Source of the DNA: a virus
Lineage: Duplodnaviria > Caudoviricetes
Strand: one strand, 5' to 3'
DNA length: 64,000 nt
IMG/VR virus record: IMGVR_UViG_3300031555_004349
Location: 32,001 to 96,000 of that record
Positions 8,757 to 22,079 of this stretch are shown here, in pieces. Both the position numbers and the translations under genes were made by a program. Position 1 is the first letter of the stretch, and each line of letters starts with the position of its first letter. The notes under the pieces were generated by a model that was not told the DNA's origin, made no database searches, and saw only the letters and a list, made by a program, of their open reading frames with translations.

Positions 8757-9882
8757 AAAAATATCTTTAATCAACTTCACAGACTCTAATCGTGCCGCAA
8801 GCAAAATAGAATTTATAGTTTGGCATTATGTTGGTGGTACTTCAACTGCTAAAAATAATGCAGATTACTTCTATAATAGATATTGTGGCGCAAGTGCTCA
8901 CTACTTTGTAGATTCAAAAGAAATCTGGCAAGTTGTTGAAGATAACGATGCTGCTTGGCATTGTGGAACAAAAAATGGATATAAACATCCAAAATGCAGA
9001 AACTCAAATTCAATTGGAATTGAGATTTGCTGTAAAAAAGATATCAATGGAAATTGGTATTTCGAAGAAGAAACTTTAAAAAATGCAATTGAACTTGGAC
9101 AATATTTAATGGAAAAATATCCACAATTAAAAGATGAAAGTAGACATATTAGACATTATGATGTTACTGGTAAAATATGTCCAGCACCTTTTGTAAAACA
9201 TCCTGAGTTATGGGAAGACTTCAAAAATGATTTATTTAAAAAAGAAGAAGTAAAAACAGAACCTACTGTTTATGCAGAAACTAAAACAGAATATTTGGTA
9301 GAAGTTACAGCTTCTTGTTTAAATGTAAGAAAAGAACCTTCTTTAAACGCAGATATTAAAGAACAAATAACTTCAAAAGGTCCTTTTACAATCGTTGGAG
9401 AAGTTAAAAATAGTGAAGATGGTATTACTTGGGGTAGATTAAGGTCTGGCGCAGGTTGGATAAGTTTAGCTTATACTAGAAAACTTGCAGAAGAAGATAA
9501 AACTACAGCAGTAAATAAAACAATGGAAGTTACTGCAAAAGTAGGGCTTAACGTAAGAAAAACTCCAGGTGGAACAAAAGTTGGAGCATTAGCTTATGGT
9601 TCAATTGTAACTGTCACAGAAGAAAAAAATGGTTGGTCAAAAATCGGAGAAAATAAATGGGTTTCTAGTCAATATTTAAAGGCAACAACAAAGACCATAT
9701 CAACAAAATTAGAAAAAGGGGATATAGTTAAAATAAAATCTAGCGCGAAGAAATATGCAACTGGACAAAAAATTCCATCAAAATATAAAAATCAATCTTA
9801 CACAATCGCGCAAAAAGATACTAAAAAGTCTTTATTAAAAGAAATCGTAAGTTGGGTTAACGACGTAGACTTAACTAAATAG
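8740..9882 (+). CDS. Endolysin: N-acetylmuramoyl-L-alanine amidase (Amidase_2) with SH3b-type cell-wall-binding domains
   Basis: IVWHYVG...ASAHYFVD...AWHCG...SIGIEIC...RHYDVTGKICP; LNVRK...WGRL..GAGWISL SH3b repeats; likely start at ATG 8740. Confidence 0.9.
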   Translation: MKTINRKISLINFTDSNRAASKIEFIVWHYVGGTSTAKNNADYFYNRYCGASAHYFVDSKEIWQVVEDNDAAWHCGTKNGYKHPKCRNSNSIGIEICCKKDINGNWYFEEETLKNAIELGQYLMEKYPQLKDESRHIRHYDVTGKICPAPFVKHPELWEDFKNDLFKKEEVKTEPTVYAETKTEYLVEVTASCLNVRKEPSLNADIKEQITSKGPFTIVGEVKNSEDGITWGRLRSGAGWISLAYTRKLAEEDKTTAVNKTMEVTAKVGLNVRKTPGGTKVGALAYGSIVTVTEEKNGWSKIGENKWVSSQYLKATTKTISTKLEKGDIVKIKSSAKKYATGQKIPSKYKNQSYTIAQKDTKKSLLKEIVSWVNDVDLTK

Positions 9883-9893
9883 GAGGAAATTAA

Positions 9894-10286
9894 ATGGATA
9901 TTATTGATTTAATATTTACTTATGTTCCATTAGATTATGTATTAATAATCGGTGGATTAATAGTAGTAGGAGAAATGTTAAAAAAATTCACTACATTACC
10001 TAACTACTTTTTAACAACAGCTTTACCTATATTAGGTGCTATCTTAACAGGCGCTATTTATTTATCAGGTAATGAGATTGTTCTTGCAGCTGATTTAATT
10101 AAACAAATTTGTATCGGTTTACTTATGGGATGGGCTGCTACAGGTGGATACGAATGGTTTAGAAATACATTTTTAACAACAAAGGAGGAGAAAAAAGTAA
10201 TTGCTATCGAATCTATTACAAAAAGTAAAGAAAGCAATGAAGTACCTAACGAAGCAACAGAAGAAAATTCTGAAATTGAAGAATAA
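9894..10286 (+). CDS. Holin
   Basis: Three hydrophobic segments, GWAATGGYE motif, charged C-terminal tail, directly after the endolysin. Confidence 0.75.
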   Translation: MDIIDLIFTYVPLDYVLIIGGLIVVGEMLKKFTTLPNYFLTTALPILGAILTGAIYLSGNEIVLAADLIKQICIGLLMGWAATGGYEWFRNTFLTTKEEKKVIAIESITKSKESNEVPNEATEENSEIEE

Positions 10287-17003: not shown

Positions 17004-18041
17004 TTAGTCCTCCTTATTAATAATTCTACGAAACCACTTTTTGTATTCAGGTTTCTTTTCTAAAAAATTACGATAATATTTTATAACTTCAGGATGATAT
17101 TTATTGTCTACTAAAAATATCCCTTCGTAAGTAAAATCATTATATTTACCTTCCCTAAACCATCTTTCAAAAGAATAATAAACTGCTTTTGTTAAAGGTT
17201 TTTTTGAATAAAGCAATATATCTGCACCTGTAAAAGTAATATTTATTTTACTTAATAGCAATGCTTTTTGTACGGTTGGTATTAATTCTTTTAAATAAAA
17301 GTCTTCTGTATATAAATTATCTTTATTATAACCAATACTAAAATAAAGACGTTTTTCCATTTTCTTTAAAATTTCAGTATTGTTTGTAATTAATTGCTCA
17401 AACTCCTCATATGTGCTAGTTAAAATAACCCCATATAAGTTTACAAAATTAAATTGTAACAAATAATTAAAATCTTCTAAATTCTGTTGATTTCTAATTA
17501 TTACTGGACGCGCAAAGCAAATACTTCTTTCATATATTGAAATTTTTTTGAAATACTCGCGCCAGTTTTCTTTATCAAAAAAATCATTATCTACAATTAC
17601 TTTTCTATCTGGTATTAAAACTTTATAAATATCTATTGGTTTTTCATTTGGATAAAGTCTTAACCATTTAGCTCTTTTGATTTTTTCAATATCTTTTTCT
17701 GTATAAATATTACTATAAAAATAATATTTTAATAAATTATCATAAATCCTATAATTAGTTTCTTGTTCGTCTATTTCATTTCCAAAAGGAACAAATTTTC
17801 TATTGTTGTAGTAAGTTCCATAAAAATCAATATTAGGATGTTTTAGGAAACTCTCAATTGGTAAGTGTGAGTTACAAAATATACAAAGTTTATCATAATC
17901 ATAAATATAGCTTTTAGGATGTAGAACTTCAACTTGGTGTCCAAGTTCTTCATAATAAACACCAAGTTTCATTAATTCTACATTTAATATTTTAGAATTT
18001 GGTTGTATTAATAAATCTATATCTACTAAACCTATTTTCAT
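17004..18041 (-). CDS. Hypothetical protein; N-terminus resembles phage radical-SAM-associated proteins
   Basis: MKIGLVDID...NVELMKLGVYY...GHQVE; no CxxxCxxC motif; overlaps the dnaE stop codon. Confidence 0.5.
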   Translation of the reverse strand: MKIGLVDIDLLIQPNSKILNVELMKLGVYYEELGHQVEVLHPKSYIYDYDKLCIFCNSHLPIESFLKHPNIDFYGTYYNNRKFVPFGNEIDEQETNYRIYDNLLKYYFYSNIYTEKDIEKIKRAKWLRLYPNEKPIDIYKVLIPDRKVIVDNDFFDKENWREYFKKISIYERSICFARPVIIRNQQNLEDFNYLLQFNFVNLYGVILTSTYEEFEQLITNNTEILKKMEKRLYFSIGYNKDNLYTEDFYLKELIPTVQKALLLSKINITFTGADILLYSKKPLTKAVYYSFERWFREGKYNDFTYEGIFLVDNKYHPEVIKYYRNFLEKKPEYKKWFRRIINKED

Positions 18042-20227
18042 TCTGCTCTTTCTCCCGCAACCTCTATTATTCCATTTTCATCAATTGAAGTTATTAATTC
18101 AATTGGAAATTCAAATAAACCATTTTTATAAACTTTTGGTACAAAATTGTCTCCTCTTCGAATTCCACTCAACATTAATTTATTTCCTCTTTTAAACCAA
18201 GAACGTTCTATTATAGTTTTCTTTCCAGTTAATTCATTTTTAACTGAAATTTGTTTATCATACTTACTGAATTGCGCTCTATATATTTTTACTCCAACTA
18301 CTCCATCATCTGTTAATAAAGTTACTAAATTTTTAGTTTTATTTTTATCTATAACTGTACCACAAATTCTAGTCAATTTAAATATAGGAATTTCTTTTCC
18401 ATCTTTTGTAGTCCATACTTTATCTATTATAGGTTCTTCAGCCAAATTATTATAATTACTTATACCATATCTTTCTTTATCAATATGTGCAAGTTCATGA
18501 GCATTATGATAGAAACATACACTATCCATTTCCCATTTACTAATATTTCCGCTCGCATATTTATTCCATATTTCTTCAAAAAGTTTATTATTTAAATCCT
18601 CTAAAATTGCTGGATTTTCTTTTATTTCAACTTTAACAGGTTCCATTTCTTTTTTATAAATTTTATCCCAAGTTGTTTGACCAATTACAAATTCACCTTT
18701 TTCATTTTGCTTAATTAAATCCATATCATATTTCTTTTCATAAAAAGTTAAAGCGCGTTCATCTAAAACATAATTAACTGAGTCTTTAAAATTTTTTAAA
18801 TACTTATTAAAGTTATAAACATGAACTTCGTTTTTATATTCTTCTGGAATACAATTATTTTTTATTAACATAGCCATATTTTGTAAAGTTAATCTTTGTT
18901 TTTTATCGCTAATTTTATCTATATAATTTCTCATTATTTCTTCGCGCGATTTCTTTTCAACCTTATCAAAACATCCAGCTTTTATTAAATTAATCATAGA
19001 TACTTTATTAGTTTTTACTTTACTCATAAAATCATCTATTCCAGTATAAGGTCTATTATCTATAATACTTTTTGCTAAATCATTATTAATTCTATTTATA
19101 CCTTTAATACCAAAAATGATTGTATTACTTTCAATATCGGGAGTGAAAGTAAATTCAGATTTATTTATATCTGGTAATTCAACACTAATTCCAAGCGCCA
19201 TCATTTTACCAATTGCTGAAGCTATTTTACCATAGTTAACAGTTTTATTTTGTTTCTTGACTTCTTCTTTTTCTTCTTTTGTCATATCTTCATCTAAGTC
19301 ATCATCTTCATTTATGTCTTCTTCGTCATTATTTTCAGTTACTGGGTCAAAATCTTCTATTAAATTTACAAACTCATCGTTCTCATCTATGCCAGCACTA
19401 TCTACTATTAAGTTTGCACAGTTCCAAAATATCGAAGGGTAATGATAAGCTAAATTCATTTCTTGTAAAGCTATTAGTGAATAACCGAAAGCATGCAACA
19501 TAGAGAAAGAATATCCTAACTGTCTTTTTACTTGTATATTCCAAACATAATTTAATAAGTTATCTGAAGTACCTTGTTCGCGTCCTCTTTTCATAAACAT
19601 GTCGTGCATACTATCAATTTCTGCAAGTTTTTTCTTTGCAATTGTTTTTCTCAATTTATTAGCTTCTTTTACACTAAATCCGCTAATTTTTTCATCCATT
19701 GAAATTAACATTATTCCTTCCTGACTTTCGCACACACCAGAGTTTGCTAACAAGTGTTTTTCCATAATTTTTATTTCTTCTTCTGTCAAACCATATCTTT
19801 TCATTTCATTATACCAAAGTTGTATATTATTTTTATACCTTGTAAAAGTCTCAGAAGGCATAACGCCACTTTCGTCTGCCATCAGCCTCATTAATGAGTT
19901 AGCAATAGCTAATTGCATTGTGTTAGTTGGTTTTATTTGTTTAGCCGTTGCTAAACCTACTGGAGTATCATATTGGAATAAGTTACTTATTTTATTTTCA
20001 CCAATTTCATTCCACATATCTTTTGTATCATAATCTAAATTACTTAAACCAACATATTTTTCATAAGTTTCTTTTAAACCATCTTCCCACTCTATATATC
20101 CATATTTTAATAATAAATCTAAACAAGTTCTAATTCTATCAAGTGCATCAGTTGTTAAAGCATCAAATTTAACCCCGCCCCATATATTCGCTATCGTGTA
20201 ATTCAAATTGACTACACAAAGTTCCAT
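18038..20227 (-). CDS. dnaE: DNA polymerase III alpha, C-terminal part (reached by a +1 frameshift near 20178)
   Basis: GVKFDAL (third catalytic Asp), LFQYDT, GYSFSMLHAFGYS, HhH (FGIKGI), OB fold. The first ~16 aa of the track ORF are off-frame and lack an RBS. Confidence 0.9.
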   Translation of the reverse strand: MELCVVNLNYTIANIWGGVKFDALTTDALDRIRTCLDLLLKYGYIEWEDGLKETYEKYVGLSNLDYDTKDMWNEIGENKISNLFQYDTPVGLATAKQIKPTNTMQLAIANSLMRLMADESGVMPSETFTRYKNNIQLWYNEMKRYGLTEEEIKIMEKHLLANSGVCESQEGIMLISMDEKISGFSVKEANKLRKTIAKKKLAEIDSMHDMFMKRGREQGTSDNLLNYVWNIQVKRQLGYSFSMLHAFGYSLIALQEMNLAYHYPSIFWNCANLIVDSAGIDENDEFVNLIEDFDPVTENNDEEDINEDDDLDEDMTKEEKEEVKKQNKTVNYGKIASAIGKMMALGISVELPDINKSEFTFTPDIESNTIIFGIKGINRINNDLAKSIIDNRPYTGIDDFMSKVKTNKVSMINLIKAGCFDKVEKKSREEIMRNYIDKISDKKQRLTLQNMAMLIKNNCIPEEYKNEVHVYNFNKYLKNFKDSVNYVLDERALTFYEKKYDMDLIKQNEKGEFVIGQTTWDKIYKKEMEPVKVEIKENPAILEDLNNKLFEEIWNKYASGNISKWEMDSVCFYHNAHELAHIDKERYGISNYNNLAEEPIIDKVWTTKDGKEIPIFKLTRICGTVIDKNKTKNLVTLLTDDGVVGVKIYRAQFSKYDKQISVKNELTGKKTIIERSWFKRGNKLMLSGIRRGDNFVPKVYKNGLFEFPIELITSIDENGIIEVAGERAE

Positions 20228-22079
20228 TTGGCGCTTTCATAACTGCATTATGGTTACAAAAATCTTCATTAACAATTAACATTCCACATGCGTGTAAACC
20301 TCTACGACATATTGTTCCTTCTACTTTTTGAGCAACTTCCCAAATGTCAGGATATTGGTTCATTGCGCTAATAAATTGTGGAATGGGATTAAATTCCTTT
20401 TCTTCATCTCCATAATAACATTGATTTAAAGTTCTAACTTTACCTCTATCAATTGGTACTAAAGATGAGATATATAAACCTAAATCACTGTCGTAACCTA
20501 ATCCTCTTGCCGCAGTTTGTAATGCCGCTTTTGAAGTTTCTGTTCCAAAAGTTGCTATATTATAAACCTCTCCTCCAATACTTTCAAAATATTGTTTAAG
20601 TGCAGCTGTAACTCTTGGTCTTTTAGAAGCTTGGAAGTCTGTATCAACATCAGGAAGTTCAGGTCTATCTCTATGAATAAAACGCCAATACATATTTTCA
20701 ATTCCATATTTAATTGGGTCCATTTGAGTAATTCCTAATAAATAATTACTTACAAATCCTCCCGCAGAACCTCTTGAAACACCAACTAAACTGTCACCTT
20801 CGTTCCACATAATATCTACAACTTTTGCCATTGTGTTAAAATATGCCGAAAGGTCATTTCCAATTTTTTGAGTGATTTCCCAAATTTCAGCTACTTCTTT
20901 TTCAATTTGGTCTATATATTGTTCCCACTTATCTTTGCTTATTTTTTGTTCCAATCCTGCAAAAATACCGTTAATATAATACTTATCTTGCTCACTCTCC
21001 GAACTTAAAAATTTATTAATATATTCTTTTGTTTTTGCATAATTATATATTTCTGAACTATAACTAAATTCTTTTTCTAATTTAATTTTTGGAACTATTT
21101 CTTTATGATATAAACTATATTCTTCAATTAAAGAAGCTACATGATTTGTATTATCCAACATCCACTGTATATCTTCTTCTTTTATATTTGTCATATAACC
21201 TTTTATGTCATCTTCACTTTGTAAATAAGTTCCTGAATAAAACGCATCTGTTTCTCTATCTCCTTCACCAGCATTTAAATATGCTTTATGTAAAGGTCTA
21301 TCTTCTCTTCTTAAATAATGTGCGTCAGTTGTAATAATTGCTCTAATACCTCTCGCTTTTGCATAAGCAAGTGCGCAAGCATTATAAATATTTTGGTCAT
21401 CACTTTCAGATGATTGCAACTCAATAAAGAAATTTTCTTTCCCAAATTGTTTTTGACACCATTGAACAAAATTATCTATTCTGTCTCTAATTTCTTTTGA
21501 TTGTTTTTTATCTAAATATTCTCTAATCAAATTGGCAAATTCTGAACCTAAACAAGCTGTGCTACCAATAACATGTCCTGGATTACTACCAATTATTTCT
21601 TCTATATCTTTATAGTAAGTTGGAACTCTTTCTATAAATTGTCTAAATGAGTGAGACCACGCGCGAGAACTTAACTCTCTCAATTGTTTATGTCCTTCTT
21701 CATCTTTTGCTAACAAAATAAAGTGATAATATTTATCTTGTCCTTTTACATAATTGGCTTTAGTTAAATTATTTCTAGTTAAATAAATTTCATTTCCTAA
21801 AACTAATTTAAAATTATTCCAATAGTTCAATTCATTTTCAAGAAGTTTCCTCTTATCTTCATTTTCTTCTTTCTCATATTTATCCTTATATTTTTGGCGT
21901 AAACCATTAATATGCTGAATAGCCTTAATATGACCACTTAAACTTTCGTGGTCAGTTATGGCTACTCCTGTCATATTTAATTCTCTACATCTTTCAAATA
22001 ATAAAGGAAGTTGGTTAATTGAGTCTAACATACGAATATTACTATAATCAGTGTGTGTATGTAAGTTAATATAACTCAT
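20169..22079 (-). CDS. dnaE: DNA polymerase III alpha, N-terminal part (PHP + palm)
   Basis: LHTHTDYS, AITDHE, GNEIY, DAHY PHP motifs; SRGSAGG; PDVDTD; HACG; ends at ...SEYMGRG*. Confidence 0.92.
   Translation of the reverse strand: MSYINLHTHTDYSNIRMLDSINQLPLLFERCRELNMTGVAITDHESLSGHIKAIQHINGLRQKYKDKYEKEENEDKRKLLENELNYWNNFKLVLGNEIYLTRNNLTKANYVKGQDKYYHFILLAKDEEGHKQLRELSSRAWSHSFRQFIERVPTYYKDIEEIIGSNPGHVIGSTACLGSEFANLIREYLDKKQSKEIRDRIDNFVQWCQKQFGKENFFIELQSSESDDQNIYNACALAYAKARGIRAIITTDAHYLRREDRPLHKAYLNAGEGDRETDAFYSGTYLQSEDDIKGYMTNIKEEDIQWMLDNTNHVASLIEEYSLYHKEIVPKIKLEKEFSYSSEIYNYAKTKEYINKFLSSESEQDKYYINGIFAGLEQKISKDKWEQYIDQIEKEVAEIWEITQKIGNDLSAYFNTMAKVVDIMWNEGDSLVGVSRGSAGGFVSNYLLGITQMDPIKYGIENMYWRFIHRDRPELPDVDTDFQASKRPRVTAALKQYFESIGGEVYNIATFGTETSKAALQTAARGLGYDSDLGLYISSLVPIDRGKVRTLNQCYYGDEEKEFNPIPQFISAMNQYPDIWEVAQKVEGTICRRGLHACGMLIVNEDFCNHNAVMKAPNGTLCSQFELHDSEYMGRG

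Follow-up and report, generated by a model that had tools for sequence, protein, structure and literature searches.

A one-base break in the dnaE gene of a gut phage, probably corrected in translation by reading CGGN as glycine

The window analyzed here is a stretch of 64,000 nucleotides corresponding to bases 32001–96000 of the viral record IMGVR_UViG_3300031555_004349, the complete genome of an SPbeta-like gut phage with 118,133 bp, direct terminal repeats and 29% GC. Its dnaE gene, whose product is by sequence a DNA polymerase III alpha of the DnaE/YorL type, is the sole DNA polymerase gene of this 118-kb genome and is split into two reading frames by a single extra base. Comparison with related phages, in which frame breaks follow the same rule of an extra C directly before a glycine codon, leads us to propose that the break is probably overcome by corrective +1 decoding: the host machinery would read CGGN as one glycine, and the full 1346-residue polymerase would be made.

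Organization of the dnaE locus

Read on the minus strand, the frame-0 open reading frame (ORF) P0001 ends with GAA TAT ATG GGG CGG GGT TAA, and the +1-frame ORF P0002 (18038..20227, minus strand) reads on as GGC GGG GTT AAA TTT GAT, which encodes GGVKFD. A preliminary description of the sequence had placed a +1 break at ATG GGG CGG GGT TAA and had expected a protein of about 1,346 residues once one G is skipped. Both statements hold: conserved DnaE sequence continues in the +1 frame, and the joined protein (P0246, 1346 residues) is 86% identical to a relative of 1350 residues (P0004), end to end over 1349 columns. Alignment with YorL of SPbeta, which is 41% identical to the phage DnaE, and with two viral relatives is gapless over the junction, and the frame changes in the window sequence only. 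Skipping one base extends the match to the Pfam profile DNA_pol3_alpha up to position 259 of 260, as compared with 252 before, and the read-through product contains the PHP, DNA_pol3_alpha (palm), finger and HHH_6 (HhH) domains of Pfam in their normal order. The catalytic residues are divided by the break, PDVD being located in the 5′ part and KFD, with the third catalytic Asp, in the 3′ part; the 636-residue zero-frame product does retain the PHP domain and PDVD and lack the KFD aspartate, as had been described. No Shine–Dalgarno sequence was seen by eye before the downstream ATG at 20227, in agreement with the earlier statement that the downstream ORF has no ribosome-binding site. A megablast search with dnaE gave no match to cultured phages.

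The codons at the junction were already suspected to be rare in this genome, and counting bears this out. GGC and GGG account for 9% and 4%, respectively, of the glycine codons, and CGG occurs 3 times in 32,449 ORF codons, one of the three being the dnaE site. Of the other two apparent occurrences, one belongs to a hairpin between genes, ahead of a ribosome-binding site, and one to a likely Shine–Dalgarno region; the genome holds no genuine sense CGG, and the dnaE site is its only genuine in-frame CGG.

Frame breaks in related phages

Orthologues were compared in five records: the genome under study (G000), G001 (72 kb), G003 (32 kb), the phage of contig G004:C1 and the sister phage G002. The comparison reveals 14 frame breaks, distributed as 1 in G000, 1 in G001, 11 in G003, 1 in the G004:C1 phage and 0 in G002; the four records with breaks come from four different data sets. 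All 14 are +1 breaks in which an extra C stands directly 5′ of GGN on the coding strand, and the glycine is conserved in the orthologues at 13 of the sites. Were insertions to hit GG/CC dinucleotides regardless of strand and phase, the probability that all 14 fall in phase 0 of the coding strand would be about 3.5 × 10⁻⁶. The four-base words at the breaks are CGGA (7), CGGT (3), CGGC (3) and CGGG (1). No flanking motif or stimulator is shared among the 14 sites. Homopolymer indels were not seen in the comparison: none of the breaks falls within an A/T run, no indel was observed in the numerous A/T runs of the phage genome and its relatives, and the phage genome has no other frame break when compared with approximately 220 kb of relatives.

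Sense-like CGG follows the same division of the records. There is none in G003, and one to three doubtful cases are found in G001 and the G004:C1 phage, as against 55 in the sister phage without breaks; we conclude from these counts that this phage clade avoids CGG as an arginine codon.

The preliminary description had attributed the break to slippage of the P-site glycine tRNA from GGG to GGC at a slow CGG codon just before a stop. The codon preceding the break is GGG in the present genome, and at the 13 other sites it is ATG, TTA, TTG, GCA, GTT, AAA, CCT, TGG or TGT, that is, codons unable to re-pair in the +1 frame. Moreover, the zero-frame stop is situated 1 to 25 codons downstream at these other sites, which argues against the stop codon as a part of the signal. 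What survives of the earlier account is the slow or unused zero-frame CGG, which appears as the key feature, the element common to all sites being the A-site word C+GGN. This rule in the relatives also upholds the view that the break is most probably overcome in translation.

The relative G003, which is 70% identical, carries two other +1 breaks in its own dnaE, each consisting of an extra C before a Gly codon. Among the 14 breaks, a single gene has as many as three (a RecJ-like gene and the gene of a P-loop protein have three each, dnaE two), and the frames stay intact past the breaks, with 902 and 712 codons open downstream. Several sites per gene followed by such long intact frames do not match the pattern of random decay. 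The positions in G003 are listed in Table I together with the features of the dnaE locus.

About half of the 11 breaks in the 32 kb of G003 fall on textbook motifs, namely the P-loop GK(S/T), the GyrB-like KGLGE, MGCR of NrdD, CxGC of NrdG and the DHHA1 motif of RecJ. The lone break of G001 is found at the equivalent position, between M and GCR, in a 737-residue paralogue or orthologue.

Table I. Features of the dnaE locus in the window and positions of the C+GGN breaks in the relative G003
Feature	Position	Strand	Remarks
Whole dnaE (YorL-like DNA polymerase III alpha)	18038..22079	-	1346 aa if CGGG is read as one Gly
Zero-frame ORF P0001	20169..22079	-	636 aa, ends Gly-Arg-Gly-stop; PHP and most of palm, without the KFD aspartate
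Candidate recoding site, in-frame CGG plus G	20174..20177	-	C at 20177 is the base to skip
GGG codon	20176-20174	-	Gly codon of the conserved MGGVKFD motif
+1-frame dnaE continuation	18038..20176	-	712 open codons, 80-88% identity with relatives; contains the third catalytic Asp and the finger, HhH and C-terminal domains
C+GGN breaks of G003 (L013-L014)	9152, 17690, 18123, 18262, 21014, 21384, 21556, 22736, 23892, 30252, 31398		

The dnaE site in other sequences

The exact 636-residue product is recorded for eight contigs (JGI, ENA). The longest of them measures 118,156 nt, compared with 118,133 here, and is therefore a record different from that of the window. In addition, the two ORFs of the window recur on a JGI contig of 3.9 kb from a variant strain, with one and three amino-acid differences in the two parts.

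Beyond this strain, an unbroken full-length DnaE of 1331–1356 residues is present in more than 60 relatives at 79–90% identity, many of them on contigs of 113–119 kb. The site was read at the DNA level in three relatives: L002 and L003 have ATG GGC GGA GTT AAA and ATG GGT GGA GTT AAA, respectively, and the frame is likewise unbroken in the metagenome locus L095, the only one scanned of 79 distant metagenome dnaE loci. A scan of 80 more distant viral dnaE loci detected no +1 break. Recurrence of the break in the dnaE of related phages had been set beforehand as a test; since the relatives are continuous there, a conserved programmed site is refuted. The two-product design modelled on dnaX, which the preliminary description had put forward, fails on the same absence from the more than 60 full-length relatives.

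Dozens of public DnaE N-terminal pieces of 605–640 residues, from relatives 42–53% identical, terminate no more than a few codons away from this glycine. In the one such locus that was read (L007:10631-11842, minus strand), a 1.2-kb insertion containing a GIY-YIG homing endonuclease gene separates this Gly codon from the one that follows; T is the last base of exon 1 and G that of the insert, as in group I introns. A group I intron thus explains the short DnaE piece in this locus, and, as the boundary of the L007 insertion coincides with the position of the extra base, the latter sits on an intron homing site. The insertions of the relatives gave no match to introns or other RNA families in Rfam. 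The overlap may be due to chance, with Gly-Gly codons lying in a conserved motif, or to selection for resistance to homing. We also considered the extra base as a scar of intron loss, which its position would fit but for which the sequence gives no support.

A second dnaE insertion site is seen in L002 (6399-7224), an 80% relative, with an HNH/NUMOD4 endonuclease ORF; this insertion is found just before the PDVD aspartates, after RDRPELP, where several database fragments stop.

tRNAs and the candidate host

The phage encodes 21 tRNAs, none of them for Arg, and the anticodon loop of its tRNA-Gly(UCC) is the ordinary CUUCCAA. A quadruplet tRNA of the phage itself was rejected, given this normal loop and an extra Infernal hit that has no anticodon loop. 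This hit is a tRNA-like gene outside the window, after tRNA-Pro (G000:C1:100117-100184; Infernal, 44.7 bits); the RNA has acceptor, D and T arms, and its anticodon arm is replaced by a 4-bp stem with a 2-base loop.

Close relatives of the phage are contained in two metagenome-assembled genomes (MAGs), G005 and G004. G005 is annotated as "uncultured Clostridium sp." and has 29% GC; its phage contig is 76% identical in DnaE. On a chromosomal contig of G005, next to ftsY, a tRNA-Gly paralogue was identified whose loop reads CUUCCGA, that is, UCC followed by G37, and tRNA-Arg(CCG) was not found among the 42 tRNAs detected in this genome. The host contigs of G005 comprise eight CGG +1 sites in 318 kb, seven of which are CGGA, and across one of them the PLP-decarboxylase domain of Pfam is recovered as a single match with CGGN read as Gly. 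Of 61 genomes of the G005 family, 46 contain the anticodon arm of the paralogue, the matches including an apparent compensatory stem variant; a reversed control gave 0 hits.

G005 also contains clusters of ordinary sense-like CGG (G005:C9 and G005:C1, near 16.7 kb and at 40.8-41.5 kb; L256-L258, L265), some on a single contig and others close to an integrase gene with its own CGGA break, which suggests foreign standard-reading DNA beside native genes. A copy of the anticodon arm of tRNA-Gly(UCC-G37), with 16 of 18 positions matching, occurs at L286:13228-13245 on G005:C35, a phage contig homologous to 99-109 kb of G000; it stands outside any tRNA gene, is followed by a T run, has no counterpart in G000 and is possibly a decoy or a remnant.

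G004 was rejected as the host, CGG being an arginine codon there. Its phage-bearing contig, G004:C1, has a second phage gene set instead of host genes and is therefore hardly informative on the host; neither of two CTTCCGA hairpins in this contig is a tRNA.

Proposed decoding and its alternatives

According to the decoding that we propose, the extra base puts an in-frame CGG directly before the codon for the second Gly of MGGVKFD. With CGG in the A site, no efficient arginine tRNA would read it and no arginine would be inserted; a glycine tRNA would be taken on the overlapping GGG, the four bases C+GGG yielding one Gly. In the host, CGG would not be a sense codon, and the tRNA-Gly paralogue with UCC-G37 could pair with all four bases of CGGA or CGGG. 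We infer that the host of this phage belongs to a family of the G005 type, that the paralogue is the decoder and that decoding is efficient. The event is most likely a corrective recoding and not a regulatory device; some zero-frame product of 636 residues may arise, and nothing suggests a function for it.

Going further, one may ask whether CGGN is a true four-base Gly codon of small-genome, low-GC gut Clostridia, read by tRNA-Gly(UCC-G37), the phage clade having adopted the code of its hosts. We advance this only tentatively and consider it doubtful. It would imply that the clade purged sense CGG and tolerates a C before Gly codons even in catalytic motifs of replication enzymes, and that the sites tie the phage to hosts owning the tRNA. 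The insert in dnaE, standing on the homing site, may also shield the allele from the homing endonuclease.

Several points weigh against corrective decoding. The dnaE break is a single site common to no relative, so that no conservation argues for its function, and the rule is not repeated at several sites in this genome, which has one site in 118 kb; multiple sites per genome are known from G003 alone (11 in 32 kb). The inserted base is itself ambiguous at the dnaE site, where either a G was added to GGC or a C was placed between two GGG codons. No UCCG tRNA or odd tRNA-Gly is present in the phage or its relatives: the tRNA-Gly with UCC-G37 is found in the G005 family, to which the phage is assigned indirectly, through a binned MAG, and the chromosome of the other MAG, G004, has 29 sense CGG, a tRNA-Arg(CCG) and no UCC-G37 paralogue. 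Finally, the eight contigs with the 636-residue product are near-identical and possibly all from one study.

Among the alternatives, it is unlikely, although conceivable, that the insertion is real but inactivating, that is, a dead polymerase allele of a defective lineage, which would need a helper or a co-infecting relative for its replication or would have been sampled shortly before extinction. Such an origin would agree with a site unique to the strain when all close relatives have an intact gene, and with a genome that encodes neither a second polymerase nor a decoder tRNA. On the other hand, the record is complete with its terminal repeats and no other gene is broken; the allele is found in eight contigs and in a diverged variant; and the insertion is identical in form to 13 other breaks, several of them in one essential gene with intact downstream frames, whereas random decay is expected to produce mixed indels and stops.

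We regard as very improbable the programmed P-site slippage of the preliminary description, in which GGG-to-GGC slippage at a slow CGG by the stop would give two products as in dnaX, a PHP-only form of 636 residues and the full polymerase. At the dnaE site itself the tRNA could re-pair from GGG to GGC, no codon is rarer than CGG, a stop is reached two codons further on, and some zero-frame product is likely made. However, the site is conserved in no relative, neither an upstream Shine–Dalgarno-like stimulator nor a common flanking motif was seen, the 13 sister sites have P-site codons unable to slip, and the 605–640 residue pieces of distant relatives are due to a group I intron in the one locus read.

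A sequencing or assembly indel, kept as a fallback by the preliminary description, is unlikely from the sequence data because the break recurs in other contigs, and that the true genome is one base shorter is very improbable. The record is a metagenome assembly and the site a G4-C-G4 stretch within a genome of 29% GC, which would favor an artefact; yet the break is repeated in several contigs from two archives and in the variant strain, the A/T runs of the genome and its relatives are free of indels, and host genes of the SPAdes-assembled MAG family follow the same rule, with the matching tRNA in the family. In addition, all 14 breaks are in codon phase 0 and on the coding strand, to both of which sequencing error is blind: a sequencer has no knowledge of the reading frame, but translation does.

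Comparison with known recoding systems

In bacteria, frameshifts required within an essential gene of translation or replication, as would be the case here, are exemplified by prfB and dnaX. The gene prfB (RF2) uses P-site slippage at CUU_UGA with a Shine–Dalgarno stimulator, and dnaX a -1 shift on A_AAA_AAG with a hairpin, giving two functional products; both are conserved. The phage site differs from the former in that re-pairing is impossible at the 13 sister sites, no stimulator resembling a Shine–Dalgarno sequence was seen and relatives have no such site, and from the latter in that the shift is +1, not -1, and unique to the strain. Laboratory +1 suppressor tRNAs and engineered quadruplet-decoding tRNAs, such as the sufD tRNA-Gly, read four bases as one Gly by means of an altered anticodon loop. 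These are laboratory-selected and have 8-base loops, whereas the candidate described here is natural, widespread in its family and has a 7-base loop, in which the extra pairing base would be G37.

The closest parallels are found in mitochondria. In those of glass sponges (Hexactinellida), corrective +1 shifts take place at the rare UGG_A and CGG_A, with T or rarely C inserted 5′ of GGA (PMC5009743). As in the phage, a single base is inserted 5′ of a Gly codon and the zero-frame codon is very rare; several genes are affected in the sponges, and in one of these animals the anticodon loop of a tRNA-Gly is enlarged and matches the four bases (PMC5009743). Unlike this organellar case, the present one concerns a tailed phage of gut bacteria and apparently also its bacterial hosts, with a single site in this genome; the rule extends to each of the four GGN codons, and the loop of the candidate tRNA is of the normal 7-base size, with G at 37. 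In Perkinsus mitochondria, AGGY and TMGGY are read as Gly and CCCCT as Pro at unused codons (PMC9550989). The phage resembles them in the unused in-frame codon of an arginine box, in the Gly of the +1 frame, in the lack of a slippery heptamer or downstream structure and in a rule that holds for every in-frame occurrence of the codon. In contrast, different species of Perkinsus have their sites at conserved positions, whereas those of the phages are lineage-specific and not common to relatives, and no special tRNA was found in Perkinsus, compared with the candidate tRNA-Gly paralogue here. Two marks of recoding of the sponge and Perkinsus type are present at the phage site, namely an insert 5′ of a conserved Gly codon and a zero-frame codon that is otherwise unused; a third, the repetition of the rule within one genome, is absent.

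In E. coli reporters, CGG_C in the A site promotes +1 shifting (FSscan, yehP), and the shift was verified by the junction peptide (PMC2790909). This case resembles that of the phage in its zero-frame CGG, for which the cognate tRNA is scarce whereas the Gly tRNA of the overlapping GGC is abundant, but its efficiency is low, CGG is an arginine codon, the out-of-frame tail is short and the outcome is non-essential. In low-GC Firmicutes, moreover, CGG is known to undergo reassignment (PMC8629427). We found no report in the literature of recoding such as that proposed here for phages or bacteria.

Should the proposal be true, the sole replicative polymerase of a phage would depend on non-triplet decoding, which in this form is in print only for a few mitochondria and for laboratory suppressor tRNAs. 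Healthy genes of these phages and of their hosts would then be split by gene callers, and "pseudogenes" in which a glycine codon is preceded by an in-frame CGG would need re-reading. The genetic code of a host could, in addition, limit the host range of its phages. For the question of how ribosomes keep or leave the frame, the case offers a testable pair, namely the four-base word of an essential enzyme and the candidate tRNA.

Additional observations

The contig G004:C1 (L221-L230) carries a direct repeat of 648 nt at 9285-9931 and 126364-127009, the copies being 97.7% identical, which flanks the 117-kb phage genome on this 181-kb contig. The rest of the contig contains a second set of tail and lysis genes, pointing to two joined phage genomes or a concatemer.

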